Source: Planctomycetota bacterium
Lineage (GTDB): Bacteria > Planctomycetota > UBA1135 > UBA2386
Assembly: GCA_046290465.1 (NCBI GenBank)
Contig: JBKAGP010000001.1
Location: 2,688,001-2,752,000 of the forward strand
DNA length: 64,000 nt
Direction: 5' to 3'
Made by a program: the position numbers and the translations under genes. Below, piece after piece: positions 29,703 to 52,073 of the stretch (position 1 is the stretch's first letter; every line of letters starts with the position of its first letter). Below the pieces are notes generated by a model. That model was not told the DNA's origin. It searched no databases and saw nothing but the letters and a program-made list of their open reading frames with translations.

Positions 29703-30593
29703 ATGCAAGATCCTCGCGCATGCAGCAAGGGAGACCAGTGCTCCTGCTCGCCTCCGTCCCAGCCTGACCAGCAGCAGGCCGGCGTCGACCGCCGCAAGTT
29801 CCTGACCGGTGCCGCGGCCGCAGCCGCCGTCGCCGGCGGCGCCGCGGCCCAGGACCCGAAGGGCCAGGTCCGCAGCGACCTGTTCCTCAAGGAGGAGCAC
29901 TGGAAGGAGCGCATGCAGGCTCCCGACGACGGCAAGAAGTTCGGCTGGGTCGTCGACGTGCGCCGCTGCTTCGGCTGCCACGGCTGCGAGGTCGCCTGCA
30001 AGGCGGAGAACGACGTGCCGCTCGGCAGCTACATCCGCCAGACGATCTACCACGACTACGAGAAGTCGCAAGGCGGCCTGGCGCGCATCATGGTGCCGAT
30101 GGCGTGCCAGCACTGCGAGGACGCGCCGTGCATCAAGGCGTGCCCGTGCGGCGCGATGCACAAGGGGGCCGGCGGTTCGGTCCAGGTCGACTACGACTCG
30201 TGCTCGGGCCACGGCGCGTGCAAGGAGGCCTGCCCCTACGGCGCGATCTACATCGACCCGGTCGCCAACCAGGCGATCAAGTGCCACAACTGCACGCACC
30301 GCGTCGAGGTCGGCATGGAGCCGGCCTGCGTGTCGACGTGCCCGAGCGAGGCGCTCTACTTCGGCGACCTCAACGACCCGGAGTCGTCGGTCAGCAAGAT
30401 GAAGGCGCGCCTCGAGGCCGAGAACGAACTCGGCCAGCTGCGCCCGGAGAAGGGCACGCGGCCGCGCATGTGGTTCGGCCACAACGAGGACCGGCCGATC
30501 GACGAGTTCGAGCCGAAGATCCCGAAGGAAGGCGAGAGCTACCACAACGACGCCTACAGCGTCTACCACTGGAAGAAGGGAGGTGCGCAATGA
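29703..30593 (+). CDS. Tat-exported four-cluster Fe-S subunit (PsrB/NrfC/TtrB-like)
   Basis: DRRKFL twin-arginine motif; CFGCHGC, CQHC..PC, CSGHGAC, KCHNC...PACVSTCP. Confidence 0.9.
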   Translation: MQDPRACSKGDQCSCSPPSQPDQQQAGVDRRKFLTGAAAAAAVAGGAAAQDPKGQVRSDLFLKEEHWKERMQAPDDGKKFGWVVDVRRCFGCHGCEVACKAENDVPLGSYIRQTIYHDYEKSQGGLARIMVPMACQHCEDAPCIKACPCGAMHKGAGGSVQVDYDSCSGHGACKEACPYGAIYIDPVANQAIKCHNCTHRVEVGMEPACVSTCPSEALYFGDLNDPESSVSKMKARLEAENELGQLRPEKGTRPRMWFGHNEDRPIDEFEPKIPKEGESYHNDAYSVYHWKKGGAQ

Positions 30594-33397
30594 GCAACGG
30601 CAACCAAAGGGACCGCCGCAATGGCCCGCGCAGCAGCCGCCGCGGCTTCCTGCGCCTCGGCGCGGCGCTCGCCGCCGGCTCGACGGTGGCCGCGTGCGCC
30701 GGCTCGCCGCAGGGGCGCGGCGGCAACCGCGACATGGTCTCCAAGGAGGAGAGCCTGCGCATCTGGGAGGAGGGCAAGGGTGTGCCGTACGAGATCGGCG
30801 ACCAGCACATGCCCGGTGTCTGCCAGCTGCCCGGCCCCAACCGCAAGGTTCGCTTCCCGGACCCGGACAAGTACAAGAACACCACCCAGGTGCACGGCAT
30901 GTGCCAGCTGTGCTCGACGGTGTGTGGCATCACCGGCCACGTCAAGGACGGCCGCATCCTCAAGGTCGACGGCAACCCCAACGACCCGAACTCGCGCGGC
31001 AAGCTGTGCGCGCGCGGCCAGGCGGCGCTCAACCACCAGTACCACCCCGAGCGGCTGCTCTACCCGCTGAAGCGGGTCGGCCCGCGCGGCAGCGGCCAGT
31101 GGCGACGGATCACCTGGGAGGAGGCCTACGACGAGCTCGCGACGCGGCTCAAGCAGGTCAAGGAGTCCGGCAAGCCCGAGGAGTTCGCGTTCCACCAGGG
31201 CCGCAACCGCAGCAAGGACGCCGTCAACCGCTTCCTGCGCGCGTTCGGCACCAACACCGCGCTCAACCACCGCGGCCTGTGCTCGGCGTCGCGCCGCGCG
31301 GCGGCGCTGACGTACCTGTTCGAGAGCGACTGGGACCTCGGCGACTACGAGCGCTCGAAGTACATCCTGAACTTCGGCTCGAACATGTTCGAGGCGCACC
31401 AGGGCCACGTCGCCGGCGCGCAGCGCATCCAGCGCGGCCGCTTCGAGAACGGCGCCAAGCTGGTGACGTTCGACGTGCGGATGTCGAACACGGCCGGCAA
31501 CTCGGACGAGTTCTACATGCCCGCGCCCGGCACCGACGGCGCCGTCGCGCTCGGCATGGCGCACACGATCATCAGCGAGAAGCTCTACGACGCCGAGTTC
31601 TTCGAGGACTGGGCCAACGTGCCGCTCGCGGAGCTCTGGGAGCAGATCAAGCAGTACACGCCCGAGTGGGCCGAGCAGACCTCGACGATTCCGGCGGACA
31701 CGATCCGTCGCATCGCGCGCGAGTTCGCGGCGGCAGCGCCGGCCGCGACCACGATGTGCAACCGCGGCTCGAGCGCGCACATCAACGGCTACACCAACGA
31801 CCGCTGCATCATCCTGCTCAACGTGCTGGTCGGCTCGGTCGGCAAGCCCGGCGGCCTGTGCTGGATGTGGACCGGCGGCTACGACAAGAAGCGGTTCCCC
31901 GAGCCGAAGATGCCGCCTTCGCCGAAGACGCCGTCGCTGCTCGCCGACCCGCCGGAGTTCGTGCTGTCGAACGTCTGGAACAAGATGAAGGTCGGCGAGA
32001 TCGTCTACCACTACCTGCAGCAGGACCGCGCGCACATCCAGTTGTACATGACGTACAACATCGACTCGCCGCTGACCTGGCCGGAGACCAAGACGACCAA
32101 GAACGTGCTGCTCGACGAGAGCAAGATCGCGTTCCATGTCTGCATCAACCCGTTCCTCAACGAGACGGCGTCGTTCGCGGACATGGTGCTGCCGTGGGCG
32201 ACCTACATGGAGCGTTGGGACGTCGACGCGCGCGGCGCCTACAACCTGAAGCCGTACCTGTCGATGCGCCGGCCGATGGTCGAGTCGCTCGGCGAGGCCA
32301 AGGACGTGCGCGAGATCTTCGCCGAGATCGCGCACCGCGTCGGTCCCGAGATGGCGCAGTGGTATCCGGAGAAGACCGACATCCGCGCCTACATGGCGAA
32401 GCACACCAAGAACGTTCCCTACGACGCGTCGAAGTACGACTCGCCGATGGCGTTCCTGGAGGCCGAGGGCGCCTACGAGGACCCCGAGCAGAAGCCGTAC
32501 TTCGCGCCCTACCTCGAGCCGCTGTCGGCGGCCGAGATGGACGGCAGCGAGACCGACCCCGAGACCGGCATCATCACCAAGGACGGCAAGGGCATCGGCA
32601 TCCTGCACAAGGGCAAGCCGGTGCGCGGCTTCAAGACGCCGTCGCGCAAGCTCGAGGTCAAGTCGGACTTCGTGCCGATGCTCGGCCGCAACGAGGACGT
32701 CAGCAAGCTCGCGGCGCTGGCCAACAGCAAGGGCAAGAACCGCCCGTCGTACCACAAGGGCCACGAGTACGACCTGCCGGCGTGGCCGACCTGGACCCAG
32801 GTCGAGGAGCACGTCGGCATGGCCGACGACGAACTGGTGATGACGTCGTTCAAGTGGAACGTGCACAACCACGGCCGCACCGCCAACCTCAAGTGGTGCT
32901 CCGAGATCGTGCACAGCAACCCGGCGTGGCTGCACCCCGAGACGGCGGCGAAGTTCGGCGTCAAGGACGGCGACTTCGTGCGGCTGAAGGCCTGGCGCAG
33001 CAAGCACATCGACAACATGGCGCCGAAGCTCGGGCTCGGGCAGGGCACGGTCGACGGCGAGCTCGAACTGCCGGTCTACGTCACCAGAGCCGTGCACCCG
33101 CGCGCCATCGCCATCAGCAACTCGCTCGGCCACTTCGCCTACACGTCGGTGGCGCAAGCCAAGCGCAACCGCGACCTCGGCGACGAGGCCAACGGCTACG
33201 AGAACGTCGCGATGCGCGACGCCGACTGGGAGCGCAACATGTGGTGGGAGGACCAGAGCGGCGGCGACCCCGAGAAGTGGGTGCAGAACACCGGCAACGG
33301 CTGGGCCCAGAACAACGTGCTGCCGATCGCGCCGGACCCGATCTCCGGCCAGCAGGCGTTCAACAGCACCGTCGTGAAGGTGACCAAGGTCACGTGA
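30590..33397 (+). CDS. Mo/W-bisPGD (DMSO reductase family) catalytic subunit, Psr/Arr/Ttr-like
   Basis: SRRGFL Tat signal plus VAAC lipobox; CQLCSTVC...C FS0 motif; HRGLC putative Mo-ligand Cys; C-terminal MGD-binding domain (LHPETA). Confidence 0.92.
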   Translation: MSNGNQRDRRNGPRSSRRGFLRLGAALAAGSTVAACAGSPQGRGGNRDMVSKEESLRIWEEGKGVPYEIGDQHMPGVCQLPGPNRKVRFPDPDKYKNTTQVHGMCQLCSTVCGITGHVKDGRILKVDGNPNDPNSRGKLCARGQAALNHQYHPERLLYPLKRVGPRGSGQWRRITWEEAYDELATRLKQVKESGKPEEFAFHQGRNRSKDAVNRFLRAFGTNTALNHRGLCSASRRAAALTYLFESDWDLGDYERSKYILNFGSNMFEAHQGHVAGAQRIQRGRFENGAKLVTFDVRMSNTAGNSDEFYMPAPGTDGAVALGMAHTIISEKLYDAEFFEDWANVPLAELWEQIKQYTPEWAEQTSTIPADTIRRIAREFAAAAPAATTMCNRGSSAHINGYTNDRCIILLNVLVGSVGKPGGLCWMWTGGYDKKRFPEPKMPPSPKTPSLLADPPEFVLSNVWNKMKVGEIVYHYLQQDRAHIQLYMTYNIDSPLTWPETKTTKNVLLDESKIAFHVCINPFLNETASFADMVLPWATYMERWDVDARGAYNLKPYLSMRRPMVESLGEAKDVREIFAEIAHRVGPEMAQWYPEKTDIRAYMAKHTKNVPYDASKYDSPMAFLEAEGAYEDPEQKPYFAPYLEPLSAAEMDGSETDPETGIITKDGKGIGILHKGKPVRGFKTPSRKLEVKSDFVPMLGRNEDVSKLAALANSKGKNRPSYHKGHEYDLPAWPTWTQVEEHVGMADDELVMTSFKWNVHNHGRTANLKWCSEIVHSNPAWLHPETAAKFGVKDGDFVRLKAWRSKHIDNMAPKLGLGQGTVDGELELPVYVTRAVHPRAIAISNSLGHFAYTSVAQAKRNRDLGDEANGYENVAMRDADWERNMWWEDQSGGDPEKWVQNTGNGWAQNNVLPIAPDPISGQQAFNSTVVKVTKVT

Positions 33398-33930
33398 GCG
33401 AGCACGCAGAGACCGACCACCTCAGCGCCGCCGCCCGCCTGTTCGGGCGGCTGCTGCTGCGCGAGCTCGACGAGCCGACGCTCGCCGAGCTGCGCCAGGA
33501 CGACGTGCGCGCCGCGCTCGCGGACCTCGACGTCACGGTCCCGCGCGACGACCAGCTGCCGGCCCTCGGCCAGCGATTCTTCGAGCTGTTCCTGCACCCG
33601 CAAGGCGCCGTGCCGCCGGTGCAGTCGCTGTGGCGCGACGGCCAGTACGACGGCGACCCGGCGGCCGGCGTGCGCCGCATCGCCGACGCCGCCAACCTGC
33701 AGCTTGCCGACGCAGCGCGCGGCGCCGCCCCCGACCACCTCGGCTGCATCCTGCTGCTGTGGGCCGAGCTGCGCGAGCCGCGCCCGGAACTCGCCGAACT
33801 GCTGCGCGAGCACCACCTGGCCTGGGCCGAACTGGCCCTGCAACACACCCTGGCGGACGACGGCTTCTACGGCGCCGTCTGCCGCGCCTGCGTGTCGCTG
33901 GTGCGCGCACTGCGCGCCGGCGACGACTGA
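33394..33930 (+). CDS. TorD/DmsD family maturation chaperone
   Basis: GTG overlaps upstream TGA; LF..P...PP.QS.W, PDHLG, HHLAW, GFY motifs. Confidence 0.88.
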   Translation: MSEHAETDHLSAAARLFGRLLLRELDEPTLAELRQDDVRAALADLDVTVPRDDQLPALGQRFFELFLHPQGAVPPVQSLWRDGQYDGDPAAGVRRIADAANLQLADAARGAAPDHLGCILLLWAELREPRPELAELLREHHLAWAELALQHTLADDGFYGAVCRACVSLVRALRAGDD

Positions 33931-33985
33931 AGCCCCTCTCTACCTCTCCATCCCCTCTTTCCGTTCCCCCTCGCTACCAACGACC

Positions 33986-35341
33986 GTGAACCGTACCAAG
34001 TCCTCCGCCGTGCAGCTGCTCGCTGGCGCAGCCGCCTTCGTCACGCTCTCCTCGACGCCGCTGCTGGCGCAAGACCCGCCGAAGAAGGAACCGATCCGCC
34101 TCGACAACTGGATCGGTGGCCCGAGCTGGATCAAGTTCAGCGGCCAGCACCGCACCCGCTTCGAGTCGCTCAACGGCCAGTTCCGCAGCAGCGCGCTGCG
34201 CAACACCGAGGACCAGCTGTTCAACCGCAGCATCCTGCGCGCCGACATCGACACCGACAGCATCGACGCGGTGCTCGAGGGCATGGACGCCCGCGCGTTC
34301 GGCACCAAGGCCGACTCGTTCGCCAACACGACGACCGTCAACACCTTCGACGTGCTGCAGGCCAACGTGGTCTTCCCGGTCGGCGACGGCCACCTGACCG
34401 TCGGTCGCTACACGATGGACATCGGTAGCCGCCGCCTGAGCGCGCGCAACAAGTACCGCAACACGATCAACTCGTTCAACGGCTTCCGTTACGACAAGAC
34501 CGACGAGGACGGCAACAAGCTGCGCGTGTTCTGGAACATGCCGACCATTCGCCGCCCGAGCGCGCGCATGGAGCTGGTCGACAACGAGCACGACTGGGAC
34601 CGCCAGTCGTCCGACCTGCAGTTCTACGGCGTGCACGCGACCCGCGTGCTCAGCGAGGACTCGCACGGCGAGATGTACCTGCTCGGCCTCAACGACAACC
34701 GCGACGGCAGCGCCGACCGCGACCTGCTGACCACCGGCGTGCGCTTCCTGCAACAGAAGAAGCCCGGCCAGTTCTTCGGCGAGGCCGAGGCGGCGTTCCA
34801 GTTCGGCGAACGCAACAACGAGGACGTGTCGGCCTGGTTCGCGCACGGCTCGGTCGGCTACGTCGGCGAAGGTGAGTGCCGTCCGACGTTCCGCCTCGCC
34901 TACGACCACGCGACCGGCGACAGCAGCAGCACGGACGGCGACTACAACCGCTTCGACACGCTGTTCGGTGCCCGCCGCTTCGAGTACGGCCCGACCGGCA
35001 TCTACGGCGCGATCGGCCGACGCAACATCAGCTCGCCCGAGATCCGCTTCGACTTCAAGCCGTCCGCGACGACCTGGGTGATGGTCGCCTACCGCCACCT
35101 GATGCTGGCTTCGGACAACGACGCCTGGGTCGAGGCGGGCCTCTCGGATCCGACCGGCGCCGCCGGCACCACCGTCGGCAGCCAGATCGAGTGCCGCCTG
35201 CGCTGGGAGCCGTGCAAGAAGCAGGTCCGCATCGAAGGCGGCGGCGCCTACTTCGCCGGCGGCAGCTTCCGCGACGCGACCCAGCCGGTCGGTGGCGGCG
35301 ACACCCGCTACGGCTTCCTGGAAGTCATCTTCTGGTTCTGA
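33986..35341 (+). CDS. alginate-export (AlgE-like) family outer-membrane beta-barrel 1
   Basis: Signal peptide, R.R.E, GRxxxxxGSRRL..RN.YRNTINSF, F..LFG, terminal aromatic-x-Phe (FWF). Confidence 0.85.
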   Translation: MNRTKSSAVQLLAGAAAFVTLSSTPLLAQDPPKKEPIRLDNWIGGPSWIKFSGQHRTRFESLNGQFRSSALRNTEDQLFNRSILRADIDTDSIDAVLEGMDARAFGTKADSFANTTTVNTFDVLQANVVFPVGDGHLTVGRYTMDIGSRRLSARNKYRNTINSFNGFRYDKTDEDGNKLRVFWNMPTIRRPSARMELVDNEHDWDRQSSDLQFYGVHATRVLSEDSHGEMYLLGLNDNRDGSADRDLLTTGVRFLQQKKPGQFFGEAEAAFQFGERNNEDVSAWFAHGSVGYVGEGECRPTFRLAYDHATGDSSSTDGDYNRFDTLFGARRFEYGPTGIYGAIGRRNISSPEIRFDFKPSATTWVMVAYRHLMLASDNDAWVEAGLSDPTGAAGTTVGSQIECRLRWEPCKKQVRIEGGGAYFAGGSFRDATQPVGGGDTRYGFLEVIFWF

Positions 35342-35348
35342 TCGCGAC

Positions 35349-35372
35349 GGATCCGCGCCGATGCGCGGATCC
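35349..35372. terminator. GC-rich hairpin after porin 1
   Basis: GGATCCGCGC-CGAT-GCGCGGATCC perfect 10-bp stem; no U-tract. Confidence 0.45.
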
Positions 35373-35410
35373 CGGCGCGCTCAGGACCTGGCCCGCAGCC
35401 TGCGGCTGCG

Positions 35411-35448
35411 CGCGGCGGTTCTGGGATCGCGGCGATTCTGGGATCGCG
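35411..35448. repeat. 17-bp direct repeat x2
   Basis: CGCGGCG(G/A)TTCTGGGAT at 35411 and 35428. Confidence 0.75.
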
Positions 35449-35598
35449 ATCGGCGGCGAACGGAGCCCCGCTCCACCCGACGCACCGACGAGTGCGCAAG
35501 ACCTCGCGACATTGTGCGCGGGTCGGTGGGGTCTTCGCGCTACGTTCGCATGCACCTCGCGCCTCACACGCGCGAGGTCCAGGAACCCGACGCCCTCC

Positions 35599-36984
35599 AT
35601 GAAGACCGCCACGCTTCGTGCGGCTGCGAGCATGCTCGCGGTGCTCGCCAGCCCCCTCTCGATCCAGGCCCAGCAGCAGGGCCGCGATCCCAAGCCCTGG
35701 CGCCTCGACGAGGCCGTCGGCACGCCGGACTGGGTCCGGCTGAGCGGCCGCCACCGCACCCGCTTCGAGTCGCTCAACAAGCAGTTCCGCGCGGGCAACC
35801 GGCCGGTCGCCGAGGACCAGTGGTTCACGCGGACCAGCGTGCGCGCCGACTTCGACTTCGGCACGTTGGGCGGCACGGCCGAGCTGATGGACTCGCGCGC
35901 GTGGGGCGACAACCCCAACCGCCAGGCGAGCACGAGCTTCAGCAACGTCACCGACTTCGTCGAACTCAACGCGATCTACGACTTCGGCGCGCCCGAGGGC
36001 CACACCAGCCGGCTGCTCGCCGGCCGCTACACGATGTCGCTCGGCAGCCGCCGCTTCGTGATCCGCAACGGCTTCCGCAACACGGTCAACACGTTCGACG
36101 GCGTCGACTACCTGTGGCAGGACGACCAGGGCCAGCAGCTGCGGCTGTTCTGGACCATGCCGGTCCGCCGCCGCCCGTTCGACGCGCCGTCGCTGCGCGA
36201 CAACGACTTCGAGTGGGACGACCAGGACAAGGACCTGCAGTTCTTCGGCGTGTTCGGCGCGCGCAACCTCGACGAGCACTCCCAGCTCGAGGGCTACGTC
36301 TTCGGCCTGCACGAGGACGCGACCGACTCGCGCAACCGCCGCCTGATCACCCCCGGCGTGCGCATCCACCGACCGGCGAGGAAGGGCGCGTTCTTCGGCC
36401 AGGCCGAGGCGGCGTTCCAGTTCGGCGATTCGCAGGCGAGCAGCGGCACTTCGCCGACGCTCGACCACAGCGCGTGGTTCGGCCACGCCTCGCTCGGCTA
36501 TCGCTTCGACTGCGCCTGCGACTTCACCGTGCGCGTCGCCTACGACTACGCGACCGGCGACCGCGACCCGAGCGACGGCGAGAACAACCGCTTCGACCGG
36601 CTGTATGGCGCGCCGCGCTTCGAATACACGCCGACCGGCCTGTGGGGCGCGATCCAGCGCAGCAACTTCAAGACGCCGGAGCTGCGCGTGTCGTTCCGGC
36701 CGACGCGGCTCTCGTGGATCATGCTCGCCTATCGCAACCTCGAACTGGCGTCCGCGACCGACCAGTGGATCGCCTCGGGCGTGCGCGATGCGACCGGCGC
36801 GTCCGGGGACAACGTCGGCCAGCAGATCGAGCTGCGCGCGCGGTACGACTTCTTGCCGAACAACATGTTCCTCGAGGTCGGCGGCGTCTACTTCGTCAGC
36901 GGCAGCTTCCTCGAGCGCGCCCCGAACTCGCCGGGGGGAGCGGATCGCAAGTACGGGTTCGTCGAGATGCGCTGGACGTTCTGA
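35599..36984 (+). CDS. alginate-export (AlgE-like) family outer-membrane beta-barrel 2 (paralog)
   Basis: Signal peptide; shares SGxHRTRFESLN, FWxMP, AEAAFQFG, YD.ATGD with porin 1; ends WTF. Confidence 0.85.
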   Translation: MKTATLRAAASMLAVLASPLSIQAQQQGRDPKPWRLDEAVGTPDWVRLSGRHRTRFESLNKQFRAGNRPVAEDQWFTRTSVRADFDFGTLGGTAELMDSRAWGDNPNRQASTSFSNVTDFVELNAIYDFGAPEGHTSRLLAGRYTMSLGSRRFVIRNGFRNTVNTFDGVDYLWQDDQGQQLRLFWTMPVRRRPFDAPSLRDNDFEWDDQDKDLQFFGVFGARNLDEHSQLEGYVFGLHEDATDSRNRRLITPGVRIHRPARKGAFFGQAEAAFQFGDSQASSGTSPTLDHSAWFGHASLGYRFDCACDFTVRVAYDYATGDRDPSDGENNRFDRLYGAPRFEYTPTGLWGAIQRSNFKTPELRVSFRPTRLSWIMLAYRNLELASATDQWIASGVRDATGASGDNVGQQIELRARYDFLPNNMFLEVGGVYFVSGSFLERAPNSPGGADRKYGFVEMRWTF

Positions 36985-40317: not shown

Positions 40318-43300
40318 TCAGGGCATCGAGACGTGGTCGCCGTCGCGCACGCCGTGGCCGGCCGCGACCAGCAGGTCGACGCCGCGGGCCATGACCTCGC
40401 GCACGTTGCTGCCGAGCCGCGAGATGCCGAAGCAGCGCGCGCACTCGCGCATCAGGTCTTCGGCGGCCAGGGCGTGGTGCTGCCGCAGCAGCCAGACCAT
40501 CGCGTGGGTGACCTCCACCATCGGCAGTTCCTCGGCGCTGCGCTCGCTGCGTTCGTCCTCCGGCACGCGGAAGCCACGGAACGCGGCGCGCTGCTCATCG
40601 CCGGCCCAGACGGTGTCGTGCTCGCTCTGCGATCCCGGCGGCAGCGCCGCGCGCACGCGAGCGCGCACCCTGTCGGTGACGCGCGAGACGTCCCAGGCCT
40701 CGGCGAGGCGGCGCACCAGCCGTTCGAACACCATCGGCGCCTCGACCTCGAGCATGCGGCGCACGGCGTCGACGTCGTCGCTGGCGCACGCTCCCTGGAG
40801 CAACTCGTGCGGACGCGGACCGTCCGGATCCGGCGGCGGAACGTGCGCGGACTCCGGTTCGCCGTCGTTCGCAGCATCCCCATCCGGCCCCTCCGGACTC
40901 TGCCGATCCTCGTCCGACGCGTCCTGGTCCCCCGAATCCCGGCACGACGGATCCCGGAGCAACGGATCCCGAAGTGACGAACCCTCGGGCGACGCATCCT
41001 CGCCCACCGCTCGGTCCGGTTCCGAAGACGCCCCCGGCGCCGGCTCGTCCGCGCCATCCGCCTCGCCGATCACCGCCGCGCCGGCCAGCCTGGGTTCGTC
41101 GGCCCGCGCCCGCGCCGCCGTCTCGGCGCGCTGCGCTTCCTCTTCGACGCGCGCCTGCTCGATCAGGACCTCGAGCCGCTCGAGTTCGCCGTCCGCGTCC
41201 TGCCAGTAGTCGGTCGACCAGACCCGCACCAGCCGCCAGCCGAGCCCGCGCAGCACCGCCGCGCGCAGCCGGTCGCGGTCGCGCGCGGTGGCCGCACGGT
41301 GGTAGGTCGCGCCATCGCACTCGATGCCGAGCAGGTAGCTGCCGGGCCGCGCCGGATCCTCGACCGCGAGGTCGATGCGATAGCCGCTGCAGCCGATCTG
41401 CGTGTGCACGGTGTGGCCGCGCGCGACCAGGGCGTCGCGCACCGACGCCTCGAACGGCGAGTCGACGTCGCGCGACGGGTCGCGTTCGATCGCGCCGACC
41501 AGCGCCGCCTCACCGCGCAGCGCGTAGTCGAGGAAGTGCCGCAGGTGCCGCGCTCCGGTCGCCGTCGAACGGTTCGCGACCTGCTCCGGACCGACCGACG
41601 AGAACACGACCAGCTCGCGGCGCGCCCGCGTCACGGCGACGTTGAGGCGACGCTCGCCACCCTGCAGGTTGAGCGGACCGTAGTTCTCGTAGACCTTGCC
41701 GGCCGCGTCCGGGCCGTAGCAGATCGAGAACAGGATCACGTCGCGCTCGTCCCCCTGCACGTTCTCGAGGTTCTTGACGAACAACTCCTCGTCGGCCTCG
41801 GCGAGCACCGTGTCGAGCGACGGATCGGCGCGCCGTTCGGCGTCGAGCAGATCCTCGATCAGGCTCTGCTGCGCGCGCGAGAACGTCACGATGCCGATGC
41901 TGCGGCGGGCGAGTTCCGGATCGCGCAGGCGACGCACGACGGCTGCGACCAGCGCCTCGGCCTCGGCCTTGTTCTGCTGCGACGCGGCGCGGTCGTAGAC
42001 GCCGTCGACGCGCACGCAGCGCACCCCGGCGCCGTCGTCGGCCGGCTCCGGTGCTGGGAACGTCAACAGCCGGTTCTGGTAGTAGTGGTGGTTGCTGAAC
42101 GCGATCAGCGACTCGTGCCGGCTGCGGTAGTGCCAGTCGAGGTGCATGCGCGGCAGGCCGGCCGCGGCGCACTCGTCGAGCACGCTCTCGAGGTCCTCGG
42201 GCACGTCGTCGACCTCGACGTCGTCGTCCGACGCGACCCGCTGGAAGAAGCTCGTCGGCGGCAGCTGCTTGCTGTCGCCGACGACGATCAGCGATTCGCC
42301 GCGGCCGATCGCACCGACCGCGTCCCACATCGGAATCTGCGAGGCCTCGTCGAACACCACCAGGTCGAAGCGCTGCGCGTCCCGATCGAGGAACTGCGCG
42401 ACCGACAGCGGGCTCATCAGCACGCACGGCGACAGCCGCGGCCACAGCCCGCGGATCTCGGCCAGCAGCCGACGCACCGGCTTGTGCCGCCGCTGCTTCT
42501 TGAGCTCCCGCTCGAGGATGCCCAGCTCGCTGCTCGCGACCTGCGTATCGCGAAGGCGCGGCAGCTTGGCGGCGAGCCGCGCGACCACGACCTTGGCGCC
42601 GAGTTCGATCGCCTTGCGGTCGAGTTCGGCGAACCGCGCGATCGCCGCCTCGTGGTCCTGACCGCGGAACCGCGCCAGCTCCGGCTCCTGCTGGTGCACG
42701 AGGTCCAGCCAGCCCTCATAGACGCTGCGGTCGAACGCCGCCCGCAGCTCGCGCGCCAGCAGTTCGCCGCTCGCGTGCGCTGTGACCAGCGCGCCGAGGT
42801 GCGCCTGCTCGGCCGCCGCTGCGGCGCGGCGATAGGCACACTGGTCGCGCAGCCCGGCCTCGTGGCGCAGCCAGCCTTCGACGCGCTGCGACACGCGGTC
42901 CAGATAGCCGGGCTCGACGTCGACACCAAACGCCTGCTCGAGGTCGAGGTCCAGGTGCTGCCCCACCTGCTGCCGCGCCGCCGCGAACTCGTCGTGCGCG
43001 GCGAACAGCTCCCCGCACAGCTGCGGCAGCGGACTCGCGCCGTCGTGCTGCGCGTCGACGTGCGTGGCGAGCGTCGCGAGCAGCTGCGCATCGGGCTGCA
43101 GCGAACCCGGCAGCAGCCGCAGCACCAGCTGGCGCAGTTCGCGGGCCTGCCGCAGCCAGCCGTCGACGGCGCCCCAGTCGGCGAGCCCGTCGCGCCAGTG
43201 GCTGCCGAGCCCGGTCGCCGCGGTCGCACAGCCGCGCAGTTCGCGCTCCTCATCGCGCACCCGCAGCGCCCGTTCGAGGTCGTCGCGGATCGACGCCGGC

Positions 43301-46300
43301 GCGCCGAGCGGTCCGGCCGCGACGCCGGCGAGCACCGGCTTGAGCTTGCGCAGGCGCCACCAGCGGAACACGAAGAACGTCTCCGCGTGCATCCGGTAGC
43401 TGGCGGCGAACGAGCCCAGGTCGAGCGCCAGCAGGTCGCGACGCCAGCGCGGCTCGAGCTGGGACCACAGGTCGTCGCGACGCCGGCCGATCGCGATGGC
43501 GCGCTCGAGGTCCTCGTCGAACTCGCGCCAGTCCGGCAGCCGCAGCCACGACGCCGGCGGCAGCGACGGCGCCTGCAGCGCACGCAGCAGCGCCAGCAGC
43601 GTCAACAGCTGTTCGTGGCTCGGGCCGACCTCGCCGAACGCCGCCTGCAGCGACAGCGCGTCGACGAGCGGCTGCACCGTGACGCGCAGGCCGTCGACCG
43701 CGCGCTGCAGCCGTTCGGCCATCGGGCGGAAGTCGCGCGTCACCGCCGGCGTCCAGTCGCCGCGCCGCACGCCCCACCACGGCGCCTGGTCGGGCACGCC
43801 GAGCGACGCGGACGCGACCACCAGCGCACCGACCGCCTCGCGCGCCGTCGCGACGACCTCGGGCGTGCTCGCCAGCAGCTCCGGCAGCGGCAGGCGCGTC
43901 GCGTCGCGCAGCTGCACCAGCTGCGACATCGCCTGGTGCACCGACCAACCGTGTTCGCGGCGGCGGTGCAGCGCGTGCACGAAGTCGTTGAGCTCGCCGC
44001 GCTGCGTCTGCAGCCGATCGGCGACGTCCTGCCACTCCTCGGGCGCGCGCCGGTAGCCGAGTTCGAGCGTCATGCGCAGCTGCTCGAGCACCGCCTTCGG
44101 GCCGCTCTTGGTCGAGTGCAGCTCGAGACAGAACGGCCCGAGGCCGACGTCGGCGAGACGGTGGTGCACGACCTCCAGCGCGGCCCGCTTCTCGGCGACG
44201 AACAGCACCCGCTTGCCGTTGGCGAGGCTCTGCGCAATCAGGTTGGTGATCGTCTGCGACTTGCCGGTGCCGGGCGGGCCCTCGAGCACGAACGACCGGC
44301 CGGCGCTGCCGGCCATCACCGCCGACAGCTGCGAGCTGTCGGCATCCTTGGGACAGAACACCTCGCTCGGGTCGAGCTCGTCGAGTTCCTCGCGCGGGAA
44401 CGCCCCGACCTCCTGCGGCAGCGCCGCACCGGGCGCCTCGATCAGGTGCCGCAGCACCGCGCTCTGCAGCAGCTCGTCCCGGTTCTTGAGGTCGAGCCAC
44501 ATCAGGTACTTGGTGAACGAGAAGAAGCCGAGGTGGGCGACGTCCTCGACCTCCCACCGCGGCATCGCCAGCGCCGTGCGGCGGAACACGTCGAGCACCT
44601 TGCCGACGTCGACGCCACGTTCGTCCTCCGGCAGCGGGTCGCCGATCGGCACCGACAGATCGAAGTCGCGCTCGAGCAGCTGCAGCAGCGTCGTGTTGAC
44701 GCGCACCTCGGCGTCGTCCATCACGAACCGGTAGCCCTCCTGCACCGACAGGCGTTCGATCACGATCGGCACCAGCAGCAGCGGCGCCCGCCGCGGCTTC
44801 TGCGACGAGTCGCTCTCGAACCAGCGCAGGAAGCCGAGAGAGAGGTAGAGCGTGTTGGCGCCGCTCTCCTCGATCGACGTGCGCGCGTGGCGGAAGATCT
44901 CGGTAAGCCGGGTGTCGAGCGCGTCGTGGTCGAGTTCGCAGCGCCAGCGGCCGGCGCGCAGCTCCTCGGCCAGGTACTCGGCGACCACGTCGGTGCCGGT
45001 GCGCTGCGACTCCAGCTCGAGGTCGCGCGGATCGTCGTCGGCGCCGAGCCGCGGCTTCGCGTGCAGCCGCATGCGCGCGCCCGACTGCAGGCGGTCCTCG
45101 ATCGCGCCGAGGTCGTGGCCGCTCAGCCGCACCGTCTTCTTGGTCTCGACGAAGTTCAGCAGCCGGTTGAACATCGACAGGTCGAGCAGCTTGTGCTGCC
45201 AGTGCTCGAGCCGGTCGCGGGCGTGGTTGGCGGGCGGCGGCGGCAGCTCGACCGGCGTCGGCAACGCGGCAGCCGGCACCGGTGCGCCGGGCTCGAGCAG
45301 TTCGATCGCGTCGGCCTCGGAGCCTTCGACGGTGCGATAGGCCGAGGTGCGCAGCGGCAGCGGCCGCATGCCGACCCGGCGAGCCGCGGCGATGTCGACC
45401 GCGACGCAGAACGCCTGCTCGTCGTCGAGGCGCTGGTCGCCGGCGGCGCGAGCACGCTGCGGCGACTGCGGCGGCACGACGCAGGCGACCGTCGACTCGA
45501 TCACCACCGCGACGCCGGCCTTGACCGCCTTGCGCAGTTCGAGTGCGGAGCCGAACGTCGGTTCGTCCAGCGACTGCCGTTCGACCCAGCAGCCGACCAG
45601 CGCATGGCCGCGCTGCACGATCACGAACGGATCGAGGCCGATGTGCTCACACAGCGCCGCGTAGAGCAGCGCCAGGTCGAGGCAGGTGCCCAGCCGTTCG
45701 CCGACGACCTGCTCCGGCAACCGGACCTTCTGGCCGACCTCCTCGAAGCTCGGCGGCGGGCTGACGTAGCGCACCCCGATCGACGAGACCGCCACGTGCA
45801 CGGCATCGAGCGTCGCGCGCACGCGCTCGGGATCGCCCTTCTGGTAGCCGTCGAGCGCGCCGTCGCCGGTCGCCCGTTCGAGCCGTTCTGCGACCGCGTG
45901 CAGCACCGGCGACAGCGCCGGATGGTTCGGCGACACGAACGCGGCCAGCAGCGACGGCAGCGCCTCGAGCCCCGGCCATTCGTTGTAGGCGAGCACGTCG
46001 ATCGGTTGCGTGCGCTGCGCCAGCACGTCGTCGCCGTCGAGCACCTGCACGACCAGCTCGGTGCGTGCGCGTTCGAGCAGGCTGGCGAACGCGTCCGCAC
46101 GCAGCGGCAGGTCGGGTGCATCGAGTTCGAGCGACGCGCCGGCCGGCAGCGAGTCGACGCGGCACTCGACACGTTCGGAGAAGTCGACGAGCTCGACCTT
46201 GACCACGAGCTCGCGCAGCGCCTCGTCGCCGTCGTTGTGCAGCGTCAGTTGGTGCAGCCACGGGACCGCGCTCTGCTGCATCGCGTAGCACAGGCGGTCC

Positions 46301-46338
46301 GCGTGGCGGACCTCGATGGCGAGCCCGGAAGTCGTCAC
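40318..46338 (-). CDS. DUF4011 - SF1 (Upf1-like) helicase - Vsr/MTES_1575-like nuclease - DUF3320 protein (Hhe-type defence candidate)
   Basis: WQHKLLDLS.FNRLLNF (DUF4011), GPPGTGKS, FDEASQ, GD.KQLPP, HYRS, ENVQGDERD, RLNVAVTRAR, RIDLAV..GIECDG..YH. Confidence 0.9.
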   Translation of the reverse strand: MTTSGLAIEVRHADRLCYAMQQSAVPWLHQLTLHNDGDEALRELVVKVELVDFSERVECRVDSLPAGASLELDAPDLPLRADAFASLLERARTELVVQVLDGDDVLAQRTQPIDVLAYNEWPGLEALPSLLAAFVSPNHPALSPVLHAVAERLERATGDGALDGYQKGDPERVRATLDAVHVAVSSIGVRYVSPPPSFEEVGQKVRLPEQVVGERLGTCLDLALLYAALCEHIGLDPFVIVQRGHALVGCWVERQSLDEPTFGSALELRKAVKAGVAVVIESTVACVVPPQSPQRARAAGDQRLDDEQAFCVAVDIAAARRVGMRPLPLRTSAYRTVEGSEADAIELLEPGAPVPAAALPTPVELPPPPANHARDRLEHWQHKLLDLSMFNRLLNFVETKKTVRLSGHDLGAIEDRLQSGARMRLHAKPRLGADDDPRDLELESQRTGTDVVAEYLAEELRAGRWRCELDHDALDTRLTEIFRHARTSIEESGANTLYLSLGFLRWFESDSSQKPRRAPLLLVPIVIERLSVQEGYRFVMDDAEVRVNTTLLQLLERDFDLSVPIGDPLPEDERGVDVGKVLDVFRRTALAMPRWEVEDVAHLGFFSFTKYLMWLDLKNRDELLQSAVLRHLIEAPGAALPQEVGAFPREELDELDPSEVFCPKDADSSQLSAVMAGSAGRSFVLEGPPGTGKSQTITNLIAQSLANGKRVLFVAEKRAALEVVHHRLADVGLGPFCLELHSTKSGPKAVLEQLRMTLELGYRRAPEEWQDVADRLQTQRGELNDFVHALHRRREHGWSVHQAMSQLVQLRDATRLPLPELLASTPEVVATAREAVGALVVASASLGVPDQAPWWGVRRGDWTPAVTRDFRPMAERLQRAVDGLRVTVQPLVDALSLQAAFGEVGPSHEQLLTLLALLRALQAPSLPPASWLRLPDWREFDEDLERAIAIGRRRDDLWSQLEPRWRRDLLALDLGSFAASYRMHAETFFVFRWWRLRKLKPVLAGVAAGPLGAPASIRDDLERALRVRDEERELRGCATAATGLGSHWRDGLADWGAVDGWLRQARELRQLVLRLLPGSLQPDAQLLATLATHVDAQHDGASPLPQLCGELFAAHDEFAAARQQVGQHLDLDLEQAFGVDVEPGYLDRVSQRVEGWLRHEAGLRDQCAYRRAAAAAEQAHLGALVTAHASGELLARELRAAFDRSVYEGWLDLVHQQEPELARFRGQDHEAAIARFAELDRKAIELGAKVVVARLAAKLPRLRDTQVASSELGILERELKKQRRHKPVRRLLAEIRGLWPRLSPCVLMSPLSVAQFLDRDAQRFDLVVFDEASQIPMWDAVGAIGRGESLIVVGDSKQLPPTSFFQRVASDDDVEVDDVPEDLESVLDECAAAGLPRMHLDWHYRSRHESLIAFSNHHYYQNRLLTFPAPEPADDGAGVRCVRVDGVYDRAASQQNKAEAEALVAAVVRRLRDPELARRSIGIVTFSRAQQSLIEDLLDAERRADPSLDTVLAEADEELFVKNLENVQGDERDVILFSICYGPDAAGKVYENYGPLNLQGGERRLNVAVTRARRELVVFSSVGPEQVANRSTATGARHLRHFLDYALRGEAALVGAIERDPSRDVDSPFEASVRDALVARGHTVHTQIGCSGYRIDLAVEDPARPGSYLLGIECDGATYHRAATARDRDRLRAAVLRGLGWRLVRVWSTDYWQDADGELERLEVLIEQARVEEEAQRAETAARARADEPRLAGAAVIGEADGADEPAPGASSEPDRAVGEDASPEGSSLRDPLLRDPSCRDSGDQDASDEDRQSPEGPDGDAANDGEPESAHVPPPDPDGPRPHELLQGACASDDVDAVRRMLEVEAPMVFERLVRRLAEAWDVSRVTDRVRARVRAALPPGSQSEHDTVWAGDEQRAAFRGFRVPEDERSERSAEELPMVEVTHAMVWLLRQHHALAAEDLMRECARCFGISRLGSNVREVMARGVDLLVAAGHGVRDGDHVSMP

Positions 46339-48435: not shown

Positions 48436-50073
48436 ATGACCGACTTCAACCGACACCCCGACACCTACCACCACTGGAAGCTCGAGTTCGACGGCGACGT
48501 CGCGCACCTGCGCATGAACGTCAACCCGGACCACCCCTTCCGTGACGGCTACGAACTCAAGCTCAACAGCTACGACCTGTCGGTCGACATGGAGCTGGCG
48601 GACGCGATCCAACGCCTGCGCTTCGAGCACCCCAACGTCAAGGCGCTGGTCGTCGGCAGCGGCCAGGAGCGCGCGTTCTGCGCGGGCGCGAACATCGTGA
48701 TGCTCAAGAGCAGCACGCACCCCTTCAAGGTGAACTTCTGCAAGTTCACCAACGAGACGCGCCTGAGCCTCGAGGACTACAGCCAGAACTCGGGCGTGCG
48801 TTCGGTGTGCGCGATCAACGCGGCGTGCGCCGGTGGCGGCTACGAGCTGGCGCTGGCCTGCGACGAGATCCACCTGGTCAACGACAACAACTCGGCCGTG
48901 TCGCTGCCCGAGGTGCCGCTGCTGGGCGTGCTGCCGGGCACCGGCGGCCTGACCCGCCTGGTCGACAAGCGCAAGATCCGCCGCGACCACGCCGACGTGT
49001 TCTGCACGATGGCCGAGGGCCTGCGCGGCAAGAAGGCGCTCAAGTGGAACTTCGTCGACGCGATCTGGCCGAAGTCGAAGTTCACCGACGCGATCGCCAA
49101 CCGCGCCAGCGAGATCGCCGGCGAGGCCAAGGACAAGGGTGCTGCCAAGGGCATCGAACTGAAGCCGATCGCCTATGAGAAGAGCGAAGAAGACGGCAAG
49201 ACCACGATGAAGTGGGAGCACGTCGAGGTCGTCGTCGAGCCGGGCCAGCGCCTGGCGCGCATCACGTTCACCGGCCCGATCGGCGACCAGCCGAAGGACG
49301 GCGCCGGCTTCGAGGCCGCGGGCTGCGACACCTGGGCGCTCAAGGCCTGGCGCGAGTTCGACGACGCGCTGCTGCAGCTGCGCTTCGACTACGAGGAGAT
49401 CGGCCTGGTCGTGCTCGAGACCCGCGGCGACCGCGGCGCGCTGGTCGAACTCGAGAAGACGCTCGACGCCAACCAGAACCACTGGCTCTGCAAGGAGATC
49501 CTGCTGCACATGGCGCGGGTCTGCCGCCGCTGGGACCTGATGGCGCGCTCGACCTACGCGCTGGTCGACGAGAAGGGCTGCGCCGCCGGCGCGTTCCTCG
49601 AGCTGATGATGGCCTGCGACCGCATCTACGCCAACGACGTCGACGAGGTCGAGTTCGTTGTCGGCCCGCTGAGCGACGGCGACCTGCCGATGAGCCACGG
49701 CCTCAGCCGCCTGCACAACCGCTTCCTGGCGACGCCCGAGCAGGGCGAGAAGCTCGCCAAGGAGCAGCCGACGCTGATCGCGCCCGAAGCCGACGAAGAA
49801 GGCCTCGTCACCTACCTGCTCGACCCGCTCGACTGGGAGGACGACGTGCGCATCGCGCTCGAGGAGCGGGTCTCGATGTCGCCCGATGCCCTCACCGGCA
49901 TGGAGGCCTCGCTCCGCTTCGGCGGCGCCGAGAACTGCGACAGCAAGATCTTCGGCCGCCTCAGCGCCTGGCAGAACTGGATCTTCACGCGTCCGAACGC
50001 CACCGGCGACGAAGGCGCACTCACCCGCTACGGCGCGCCCGAGGGCGCGCAGTTCGACTGGCGCCGCACCTAA
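48436..50073 (+). CDS. boxC: 2,3-epoxybenzoyl-CoA dihydrolase
   Basis: YxHWKL, LKLNSYDL.VD.EL, KVNFCKFTNETR, LPEVPLLGVLPGTGG, SPDALTGME, FGRL.AWQNWIF.RPNA. Confidence 0.96.
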   Translation: MTDFNRHPDTYHHWKLEFDGDVAHLRMNVNPDHPFRDGYELKLNSYDLSVDMELADAIQRLRFEHPNVKALVVGSGQERAFCAGANIVMLKSSTHPFKVNFCKFTNETRLSLEDYSQNSGVRSVCAINAACAGGGYELALACDEIHLVNDNNSAVSLPEVPLLGVLPGTGGLTRLVDKRKIRRDHADVFCTMAEGLRGKKALKWNFVDAIWPKSKFTDAIANRASEIAGEAKDKGAAKGIELKPIAYEKSEEDGKTTMKWEHVEVVVEPGQRLARITFTGPIGDQPKDGAGFEAAGCDTWALKAWREFDDALLQLRFDYEEIGLVVLETRGDRGALVELEKTLDANQNHWLCKEILLHMARVCRRWDLMARSTYALVDEKGCAAGAFLELMMACDRIYANDVDEVEFVVGPLSDGDLPMSHGLSRLHNRFLATPEQGEKLAKEQPTLIAPEADEEGLVTYLLDPLDWEDDVRIALEERVSMSPDALTGMEASLRFGGAENCDSKIFGRLSAWQNWIFTRPNATGDEGALTRYGAPEGAQFDWRRT

Positions 50074-50150
50074 CGGCCCGGACGCCAACACCCAACCGAT
50101 CACCTTTCCCTGAGGGGCATCCTTTCCTCACGGATTTCCAAGGCAACCTG

Positions 50151-51569
50151 ATGAGCAGCGTCGACCTCGAAGCAAAGATCCCGAACAACGTCGGACTCCG
50201 CGACAACAAGCGCCTGATGATGGCGCTCGAAAAGTGGCAGCCGAAGTTCCTCGACTGGTGGAAGACTGTCGGCCCGACGGACTTCAACGAGGACCAGATC
50301 TACCTGCGCACCGCCGTCGGCGTCGGCAAGGGCGGCTGGGCGCACTTCGACTACGTGAAGATGCCGGACTACCGCTGGGGCATCTTCCTCGCGGACGGGC
50401 CGGACGATCGCAAGATCCACTTCGGTGACAACATGGGCAGCGACGCCTGGCAGACCGTGCCGGGTGAGTTCCGCAACCGCCTGCGTCGCCTGATCGTCAC
50501 GCAGGGCGACACCGAGCCGGCGTCGGTCGAGCAGCAGCGCATGCTGGGCCACACCTGCCCGTCGCTCTACGACCTTCGCTCGCTGTTCCAGGTCAACGTC
50601 GAGGAAGGCCGCCACCTGTGGGCGATGGTCTACCTGCTGCAGACCTACTTCGGTGCCGACGGCCGCGACGAGGCCGAGGCGCTGCTCGAGCGCAACTCCG
50701 GCGACGTCGACAACCCGCGCATCCTCGAGGCGTTCAACTACCCGGTCACCAACTGGCTGGACTTCTTCTGCTTCACGGCCTTCATGGACCGGGACGGCAA
50801 GTACCAGCTGTCGTCGCTGGCCGAGTCGAGCTTCGACCCGCTGGCGCGTTCGACGCAGTTCATGCTGGCCGAGGAGGCCTACCACCTGCAGACCGGTGAG
50901 AACGGCGTCGGCCGCATCGTCAAGCGCACCGGTGAGCTGATGGCCGAGGGCAAGGACCCGCGCACCGAAGGCGCGATCCCGCTCGACATGATCCAGCGCT
51001 ACTGCAACTTCTGGTTCACCGGCTCGATGGACCTGTTCGGCGGCGAGGACTCGACCAACGCCGCCGAGGCGTTCGCGATGGGCCTGAAGGGCCGCTACCG
51101 CGAGTCGGACGGCATCTACAAGGACCCGAAGGCGCTCAACGCCGAGTACCGCCTGCAGGTGCCGACCGACGACGGCAAGCTCGAGGATAAGGACATCCCG
51201 CTGCGCCGCGCGATGAACGCGGTCCTGCTGGACGCCTACATCGCCGACTGCAGCCGCATCGTGCAGCGCTGGAACCGCGAGCTGAAGAAGCTCGGCGTCG
51301 ACCAGACGATCCAGTTGCCCGACCGCAAGTTCAACCGCCACCAGGGCGTCTACGCCGGCTACAAGTTCAACCCGCAGGGTGAGCTGATCGACGAGGCGAC
51401 CTGGACGCACGAGCACACCAAGTGGCTGCCGACGCAGGCGGACCGCGAGTACGTCGACTCCTGCATGGTCAAGGTCACCGAGCCCGGCAAGTTCGCGAAC
51501 TACATCGCGCCGCCGCAGAACGGCCCGAACAACCAGCCGATCGACTTCGAGTACGTCAAGTTCCACTAG
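50151..51569 (+). CDS. boxB: benzoyl-CoA 2,3-epoxidase di-iron subunit
   Basis: KIPNNV, YLRTAV, MPDYRWGIF, QGDTEPASVEQQ, EEGRH, DRDGKYQL, EEAYH. Confidence 0.96.
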   Translation: MSSVDLEAKIPNNVGLRDNKRLMMALEKWQPKFLDWWKTVGPTDFNEDQIYLRTAVGVGKGGWAHFDYVKMPDYRWGIFLADGPDDRKIHFGDNMGSDAWQTVPGEFRNRLRRLIVTQGDTEPASVEQQRMLGHTCPSLYDLRSLFQVNVEEGRHLWAMVYLLQTYFGADGRDEAEALLERNSGDVDNPRILEAFNYPVTNWLDFFCFTAFMDRDGKYQLSSLAESSFDPLARSTQFMLAEEAYHLQTGENGVGRIVKRTGELMAEGKDPRTEGAIPLDMIQRYCNFWFTGSMDLFGGEDSTNAAEAFAMGLKGRYRESDGIYKDPKALNAEYRLQVPTDDGKLEDKDIPLRRAMNAVLLDAYIADCSRIVQRWNRELKKLGVDQTIQLPDRKFNRHQGVYAGYKFNPQGELIDEATWTHEHTKWLPTQADREYVDSCMVKVTEPGKFANYIAPPQNGPNNQPIDFEYVKFH

Positions 51570-51737
51570 CCGGCTTGGCTCGCGGAGCGAGCCGGACCGA
51601 CTGGGTTCCACTTCGGATCGTGGCTACGTGGAGGCATCCTCCGCGAGGCCATCCGCAACCGGCCCGCTGCCGCGATCCTCGGCCTCGCTTCGCGAGGCGA
51701 TGCGCCTTCGGCGCTCCCCTGTTGCGCCTGAATCCTG

Positions 51738-52073
51738 ATGACGAATCGTCTTTGTTATGTCTGTGAAGGCGGCGACTGCACCGAGAAGGGCAGCGGCGAC
51801 CTGTTCGACAAGCTCCGCGACCTGGTCAAGCAGTTCGACCCGGACGAGGAGCGCATCAAGGTGCGCCGCTACCCGTGCTTCGGCGCGTGCGAGCAGGGCA
51901 TCAACGTGACGCTGTTCCCCGACAAGGTGTTCTACAGCACCGTCACCGAGAACGACCTCGCCGAGATCGTCGCGCACATCAAGGGCGAGGGCGAGGTCCC
52001 CGAACGCCTGACCGGCAAGTGCGAGCCGGACGTCGAGCAGATCATCTGGGACATGCTCGACAGTCCTTACTAG
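51738..52073 (+). CDS. thioredoxin-like (NuoE-type) [2Fe-2S] ferredoxin
   Basis: C9-x4-C14-x32-C47-x3-C51, G.N..P..V.Y..V...D...IV..H. Confidence 0.88.
   Translation: MTNRLCYVCEGGDCTEKGSGDLFDKLRDLVKQFDPDEERIKVRRYPCFGACEQGINVTLFPDKVFYSTVTENDLAEIVAHIKGEGEVPERLTGKCEPDVEQIIWDMLDSPY

Follow-up and report, generated by a model that had tools for sequence, protein, structure and literature searches.

An anchor-free, Cys-ligated molybdoenzyme clade of Planctomycetota with a remodeled FS4 cluster and porins that neighbor it only within one genus

How does a molybdoenzyme that is encoded without a membrane anchor exchange its electrons, and do two outer-membrane porins encoded directly behind it have any part in its function? 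These questions are raised by five plus-strand genes (positions 29703 to 36984) in a 64,000-nucleotide stretch of contig JBKAGP010000001.1 from a Planctomycetota bacterium (GCA_046290465.1), hereafter called the window. The genes encode an Fe-S subunit (B), a catalytic subunit (A), a chaperone (D), and two porins (P1 and P2), and an initial annotation had proposed a novel anchor-less oxyanion or sulfur-species redox system, whose porins import substrate or position the enzyme at the outer membrane. The first part of this proposal stands, in the sense that A and B represent an undescribed anchor-less, Cys-ligated enzyme of oxyanion type with a molybdenum bis-pyranopterin guanine dinucleotide (Mo-bisPGD) cofactor; the role for the porins does not. 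The conserved unit is B-A-D, not B-A-D-porin-porin.

The genes of the conserved unit are tightly packed. B (29703 to 30593; 296 amino acids; Fer4_11 in Pfam), with four Fe-S Cys groups, overlaps by 4 bp with A (30590 to 33397; 935 amino acids), a Mo/W-bisPGD catalytic subunit with Molybdopterin, Molybdop_Fe4S4, and Molydop_binding domains, which in turn overlaps by 4 bp with D (33394 to 33930; 178 amino acids), a chaperone of the TorD/DmsD family (Nitrate_red_del, weak DmsD). P1 (33986 to 35341) and P2 (35599 to 36984), both genus-level neighbors with an AlgE fold (PF13372; 132 and 146 bits, respectively, versus a cut-off of 25.2), follow after gaps of 55 bp and 257 bp. Coordinates and Pfam matches thus confirmed the gene order of the initial annotation, and we also confirmed the twin-arginine translocation (Tat) motif and lipobox (VAAC36, with Cys36) on A and the absence of an NrfD/PsrC anchor or cytochrome from the operon. 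Added here are a Tat signal on B itself (DRRKFL...AAA/QD), an unusual FS4 group (CSGHGAC), and paired extra cysteines in A and B. A promoter scan of the locus, weak as a test, returned 0 sites, and in RNA run X5, which represents a relative's contigs only, 0.05 of words, mostly less than 95% alike, were found over B-A-D and the porins were almost bare.

The unit was followed through 76 genome loci (from the best 80 of 281 relatives) and through the best 80 of 109 metagenome loci. The genome loci belong nearly all to Planctomycetota, with 55 to 94% identity; B lies upstream of A in 66 of the 76, nine of the ten exceptions being contig edges, and a D homolog adjoins A in 65. Among the metagenome loci, B was found in 80/80 and D in 54/80. 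At a single locus (L069), A has neither a B gene within 5 kb upstream nor a lipobox. Of 401 sampled genomes of the phylum, 14 contain the clade, the window's genome among them; within the window's genus it occurs in 12 of 15 genomes, and it is also present in the complete genome of a cultured strain, Saltatorellus ferox Poly30. Compared with 1.84 billion representatives, it makes up one full-length 50% cluster, the next matches reaching only 41 to 45%; a metagenome scan with P0378 gave no matches, and the ESM Atlas gave generic molybdopterin clusters only. We found no description of the clade in the literature searched, which excluded subscription papers and included the available parts of PMC7331816, PMC13284237, PMC11521347, and PMC12183865. 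The available main text of Wells 2023 (PMC10100899) notes unnamed Cys-ligated lineages and does not mention planctomycetes; the supplements of Wells 2020 and 2023 may contain members.

Since no anchor was found across loci and genomes, its absence is a trait of the clade, as far as the searched families go. Seven anchor queries of the NrfD, PhsC, and ActC types gave no match at the 76 genome loci or at 93 further loci. In the window's genome (94% complete), NrfD matched only ActC and a fused FeS-NrfD protein encoded near a different Mo enzyme, and searches for NapC, DmsC, and Ni_hydr_CYTB came up empty, NarI-type anchors being outside this search; a cognate anchor encoded elsewhere in that genome, part of what the initial annotation had named as counting against it, was therefore rejected for these families. 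In the complete S. ferox genome, NrfD was matched only once, inside an act-cox cluster (we take such clusters to be act type on the basis of gene order and NrfD/Qrc-type matches). The NrfD_2 profile, which had no match in any control genome, was given no weight.

With regard to its ancestry, A fits the Cys-ligated branch of the dimethyl sulfoxide (DMSO) reductase (MopB) superfamily, having a bisPGD fold, an FS0 motif, and a Cys Mo ligand, but it stays below every NCBIfam cut-off (PhsA, 364 versus 694 bits; ArrA, 151 versus 1600; TtrA, 87.5 versus 1750), and no tested relative scored better than 193 of 1600 bits with the ArrA model. In two quick IQ-TREE trees (supported by SH-like approximate likelihood ratio tests only, with no bootstrap, no bona fide ArrA, AnrA, SrrA, or Wolinella PsrA, and three rows missing from the first tree), the clade had a support of 100, was joined to its sister lineages at 99 to 100, and fell inside a 31-row radiation at 99, one member pair of which is long-branched. 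This radiation, which also holds the enzyme of strain EbN1, a plasmid enzyme of Azoarcus KH32C, and the second Mo enzyme of the window's genome, lies on the side of Arx, Ttr, and SoeA-like enzymes; ArxA references branch separately, as does a Proteus TtrA that exceeds the cut-off at which A fails, leaving no ground for a TtrA/SrdA assignment. PhsA lies outside the 99-supported group in both trees. The phylogeny, which the initial annotation had put forward as a check, thus places the enzyme in a clade of its own rather than in any characterized clade among the limited references, and the label "Psr-like" finds no backing in it.

Judged by sequence, this clade belongs to the "Unk" radiation of Duval 2008, in which B(C)A enzymes, including that of EbN1, were grouped as being of unknown function (PMC2500031). 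According to the available text of that paper, Unk enzymes either have a B-C-A order with an anchor or are anchor-less, without Tat and with a B subunit of about 60 kDa. The planctomycete enzyme shares the B(C)A gene order and groups with both the EbN1 type and the type without Tat and with a large B. Unlike the described types, however, it combines the lack of an anchor with Tat signals on A and B, a lipobox, a B of normal size (only 296 amino acids), a His-containing FS4, and the paired extra cysteines. The EbN1 enzyme (P0167, CAI09802.1; Aromatoleum aromaticum, the strain being our deduction) is 35% identical to A over 851 columns and has the same B-A order, the Cys ligand, and a Tat signal on A.

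Several other members of the radiation deserve a separate description. The Azoarcus KH32C plasmid (L077:1-14546) carries a B-NrfD-A-TorD operon beside arsA/acr3 and a PhnD/kinase/sigma54 trio, and operons of this type form a large betaproteobacterial family; they are possibly of the AnrA type, as the antimonate reductase AnrA reportedly lies near EbN1/Dechloromonas-type enzymes, a placement with which an ars-linked operon would agree. No protein named AnrA was among the 120 matches listed. A deeper relative (L157:5752-16999, in genome G130) has the order B, OprO/P porin, membrane subunit, A, and D, followed by an Nqr/Rnf-like operon; genes for a sigma54 two-component system and a PhnD-like protein lie next to it. 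The second Unk-type Mo enzyme of the window's genome (G000:C1:502071-510779) has no Tat signal and is preceded, at a distance of about 4.4 kb, by a fused FeS-NrfD gene in the same orientation, with similar matches in many relatives. Finally, the Cys that would ligate Mo is absent from many members of the radiation (e.g., P0010, P0011, P0014, and P0017; P0010-P0052 and similar), which suggests cofactor-less or non-catalytic subunits.

The active site was compared with that of ArrA. A has its FS0 cysteines at positions 105, 108, 112, and 140, and the Mo ligand C231 is invariant in 69/69 A sequences, as are G204, R205, R207, H227, R228, R235, and R236. The model of A (AlphaFold2; predicted local distance difference test score, 90.7) has PsrA (2vpw) and ArrA (6cz7) as its best folds in a near tie. 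In the alignment, the segment HQGRNR corresponds to RGRY of ArrA and NHRGLCSASRR to SHSSVCAEAHK, so that R205 aligns to R165 and the Gly-Arg, the His, the Cys ligand, and a basic residue at position C+5 are all kept; the statement that these segments match no known motif was therefore too strong. The available text of PMC12949373 reports the Gly-Arg pair, the Arg of which (R165) binds As(V) in ArrA, for all arsenic enzymes compared and its absence from Ttr; the pair is also absent from PhsA. ArrAB of Shewanella ANA-3 is alike in fold (template modeling score of 0.78 by target), and some Arr enzymes likewise have no anchor (PMC2500031, available text). However, ArrAB and ArxAB belong to a separate clade, A lacks their RY/RGWG motif, no ars or arx regulators occur near the operon, and FS4 of ArrB and ArxB has four cysteines. 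From the strongly cationic character of the pocket, an oxyanion substrate can soundly be deduced, but not arsenic specifically.

In subunit B, the third Cys group, which corresponds to FS4, reads C167-S-G-H170-G-A-C173, with His in the place of the second ligand. This position is not Cys in 65/65 genome pairs (62 His) and in 72/72 further distinct pairs (70 His), whereas anchored relatives (Azoarcus, Phs, Arx, L157, and L158) have CIGC. Among the sister B proteins (L149 and L153 were left out, and the L154 contig breaks off without B), the second Cys is missing in 8/8, seven of which are anchor-free; since the eighth, L156, keeps NrfD together with a three-Cys FS4, the sequences suggest that FS4 was altered first and the anchor lost later. 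In ferredoxins with a CXXHXXC motif, the cluster is of the [3Fe-4S] type and its potential is more positive (PMC6237146, available text), and PcrB and EbdB also lack the second Cys of FS4.

The change at FS4 is accompanied by a pair of cysteines. The usual ligation scheme assigns C147, C167, and C173 to FS4, so that the clade-specific C149 (C147-P-C149) would sit right beside it. A, for its part, carries an N-terminal arm, conserved at W59, Y67, and P75-G76-x-C78, which is absent from the sisters compared and the Cys of which occurs in 116 of 119 database homologs (109 by pattern and 7 by eye). A-C78 and B-C149 are conserved, co-vary, and were lost together twice: both are Cys in 64 of 65 pairs, L072 having lost both, and in 70 of 72 further pairs, L227 having lost both. 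At L072 (7122-10766), the lipobox, A-C78, B-C149, and H170 are gone together. The simplest reading of this pattern is an inter-subunit disulfide that fixes the lipid-bearing arm at the anchor-binding face. As for the lipobox, 62 of the 63 genome members whose Tat motif is readable have it, and about 10 of the 62 members from metagenomes do not (11 were flagged, at least one of them a pattern mis-pick).

Taken together, these features would fit the following picture. B and A would be exported by Tat, D serving as the maturation chaperone of A, and AB would act as a periplasmic oxidoreductase with no quinol-binding subunit, held to the membrane by the N-terminal lipid of A in the majority of members and free in solution in others. 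The chain from Mo through FS0, FS1, FS2, and FS3 would end in FS4, a three-Cys cluster that is probably a high-potential [3Fe-4S] or else is His ligated, with the arm of A probably pinned beside it by the A-C78/B-C149 disulfide. Given the lack of a quinol site and the probably high potential of the terminal cluster, the most economical arrangement is one in which electrons pass to or from c-type hemes, and FS4 would most likely swap electrons with c-type cytochromes that feed an alternative complex III (ACIII)-aa3 or a cbb3 oxidase; the window's genome has an aa3-type oxidase beside its act-type cluster, plus a cbb3 oxidase. At such a potential, electrons would flow downhill from As(III), Sb(III), or sulfite, whereas reduction of As(V) would not be downhill. 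The likeliest net reaction would be an oxygen-atom transfer that oxidizes a reduced oxyanion, arsenite or antimonite first and a sulfite-type substrate second, with no need for the porins. A link to arsenic is supported by the relative in the same radiation that lies beside arsA and acr3 in KH32C; no AioA over cut-off was found in the window's genome. That the enzyme is periplasmic, anchor-free, and independent of the porins we consider probable, and we lean slightly toward oxidation as its direction. The complete picture, for which we infer the cluster type, disulfide, partner, direction, and substrate, is tentative and somewhat short of an even chance.

A number of observations weigh against this picture. 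The sister L156 keeps NrfD despite its three-Cys FS4, and the anchored ActB-type protein has such a cluster as well; a three-Cys FS4 is therefore no proof of independence from quinones. L251 has B-C149 without A-C78, and is thus discordant with the proposed pair. No cytochrome partner was identified, and the flanking genes (101 scanned of 126 picked) are heterogeneous, with no ars gene and no recurring regulator or cytochrome among them; the acr3 of the window's genome lies about 2 Mb from the operon. Two pocket tyrosines of ArrA (reportedly as numbered by Glasser in 2018) are missing in A, and the Gly-Arg and His are not specific to arsenic, because a SoeA-like protein (P0426) shares both. 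This protein also has the RG..AH.N segment, but no Tat signal, a DmsC-type anchor, and a long separate branch; we take it to be a sulfite dehydrogenase from its motifs and its A-B-DmsC order. Moreover, the genome and metagenome sets share species, and their counts are not independent.

Heme proteins do occur elsewhere in the window's genome. Two adjacent genes (window 283-2666), the first encoding a lipoprotein, have two CxxCH motifs each and look di-heme peroxidase-like. Two clusters of large multiheme cytochromes (G000:C1:2620166-2631215 and 5004974-5012274) have 7 to 23 CxxCH per protein.

The alternative that survives best keeps the anchor-free periplasmic AB but has it reduce a high-potential oxyanion (selenate, iodate, antimonate, or arsenate), with electrons supplied by c-type cytochromes, as in Ser and Pcr, or by a borrowed ActC. 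Anchor-less ArrAB reductases do exist (PMC2500031, available text). PcrB has the three-Cys FS4 too, and 33 of 37 genomes of the clade or its sisters contain NrfD-type genes, most of them about the size of ActC. A TIGR04553-like "putative selenate" ATP-binding cassette (ABC) cluster flanks the operon at 4 of 76 loci, and the window's genome has selD, but the same ABC family is common across the family in 43 of 61 genomes (E<=0.001; 14 over cut-off), with or without the enzyme, so that the link to selenium is weak. Neither NapC nor CymA was found in the window's genome, and reduction of As(V) from cytochrome c would be uphill. For selenate, iodate, or Sb(V), we regard a reductase as a strong rival, though less likely than not. 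As an observation in its own right, selD (G000:C1:1309619-1311927) has an in-frame TGA and lies next to a selA-like gene, meaning that machinery for selenocysteine is present.

A Psr/Phs-like polysulfide or thiosulfate reductase, as automatically annotated, is improbable. PhsA is the best NCBIfam match, 2vpw the best PDB match by sequence for A and B (by fold, ArrA nearly ties), and JGI names the protein thiosulfate/polysulfide reductase chain A. The PhsA score nevertheless reaches only about half of its cut-off, and PhsA has no Gly-Arg; PsrABC and PhsABC differ further in their ABC gene order and obligatory anchor, of which neither PsrC nor PhsC is present here, leaving PsrA, PhsA, and SrrA all poor matches. 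For Psr, PsrC is needed to use quinol (PMC12949373, available text).

Still less credible is the idea that FS4, C78, and C149 form a redox-active cluster-disulfide relay to periplasmic thiol-disulfide carriers, analogous to ferredoxin:thioredoxin reductase. In C147-P-C149, a cluster ligand does have a free Cys as its neighbor, H170 belongs to the same cluster, and the two cysteines co-vary and disappeared at L072 along with H170 and the lipobox. Sister lineages are, however, anchor-free without these cysteines, no thiol-disulfide gene is conserved nearby, and the thioredoxin gene in the window is on the opposite strand and has no signal peptide.

This leaves the porins, which the initial annotation had taken to import substrate or to place the enzyme at the outer membrane or cell surface as in Shewanella Dms. 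A few features speak for such a role: no plus-strand terminator-like site follows D, P1 starts after a short gap, the barrels are rich in Arg (P2, about 45% identical to P1, was modeled as an 18-strand barrel with many conserved Arg, with AlgE as the best fold match), A has no Asp at lipoprotein position +2, the deeper relative L157 has an OprO/P porin inside its operon, and, in 9 of the 11 same-genus genomes that allow a decision, a porin still adjoins the operon, albeit in tandem in only two. Cotranscription of D and P1 within the genus is possible on this sequence evidence. Beyond the genus, linkage fails: a porin comes after the operon in 8 of the 76 genome loci (8 of the 59 that have 1.6 kb or more of downstream sequence; all at least 83% identity) and in 3 of the 48 metagenome loci that extend far enough (all at least 87% identity). 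A methyltransferase-like gene on the opposite strand is kept in the same block at 10 loci, at least as often as the porin, and since this gene is unrelated, the porin adjacency represents ordinary genus synteny; coupling to the enzyme was rejected on these grounds. Two genomes (G001 and G014) have the enzyme with the porins elsewhere, G007 (85% complete) has a porin at the syntenic site with the enzyme missing there, porin neighbors elsewhere are varied, and G326 has an unlinked tandem porin pair. Among 28 other clade genomes, 8 have no porin match, and in two complete clade genomes the porins lie at least 0.5 Mb from the operon.

The comparison with Shewanella DmsEFAB, in which the Mo subunit is likewise a Tat lipoprotein and a beta-barrel gene lies close by, fails in other respects as well. 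There is no decaheme DmsE and no multiheme wire or conduit in the loci, the barrel has an AlgE rather than an MtrB-type fold, the Mo ligand is Cys rather than Ser, and no porin is conserved together with a multiheme cytochrome. The lipobox, as noted, is missing in some metagenome members, and the ActB-type protein of the window's genome shares a Tat lipobox without Asp+2. Surface display is unlikely, and a functional tie to the porins, already largely refuted, is the least probable of the alternatives weighed here.

The surroundings of the operon hold a few further elements. In the gap between P1 and P2 (window 35341-35460), GC-rich repeated and inverted motifs are found, with a 17-base deletion in one strain. 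The genus synteny block also includes a gene (window 40318-46338) for a 2,006-residue helicase-like protein with a C-terminal nuclease-like region, possibly a defense gene. A gene run with a small ferredoxin-like gene (window 48436-52073) resembles boxC/boxB of benzoyl-CoA oxidation.

In summary, the Unk radiation has been without a known function since 2008, and a branch of it is conserved at about 55 to 94% identity across Planctomycetota, where its automatic annotation as thiosulfate/polysulfide reductase is at odds with the tree. As only three genes are needed, direct expression and assay are possible. The remodeled FS4 and paired cysteines would show a complex iron-sulfur molybdoenzyme in the course of detaching from the quinone pool. 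In a bolder and doubtful extension, the His/three-Cys cluster and inter-subunit disulfide would constitute a new electron port, in place of the quinol anchor, that harvests electrons from metalloid or phosphorus oxyanions (candidates being arsenite, antimonite, and even phosphite, all of this taken jointly) for O2 respiration, or that serves thiol exchange; if true, this would add a third route of arsenite/antimonite oxidation besides Aio and Arx, in oxic aquatic heterotrophs. The host planctomycetes are mostly oxygen-breathing, and if arsenite, antimonite, or sulfite is indeed oxidized via cytochrome c, planctomycetes would be unrecognized players in those cycles.

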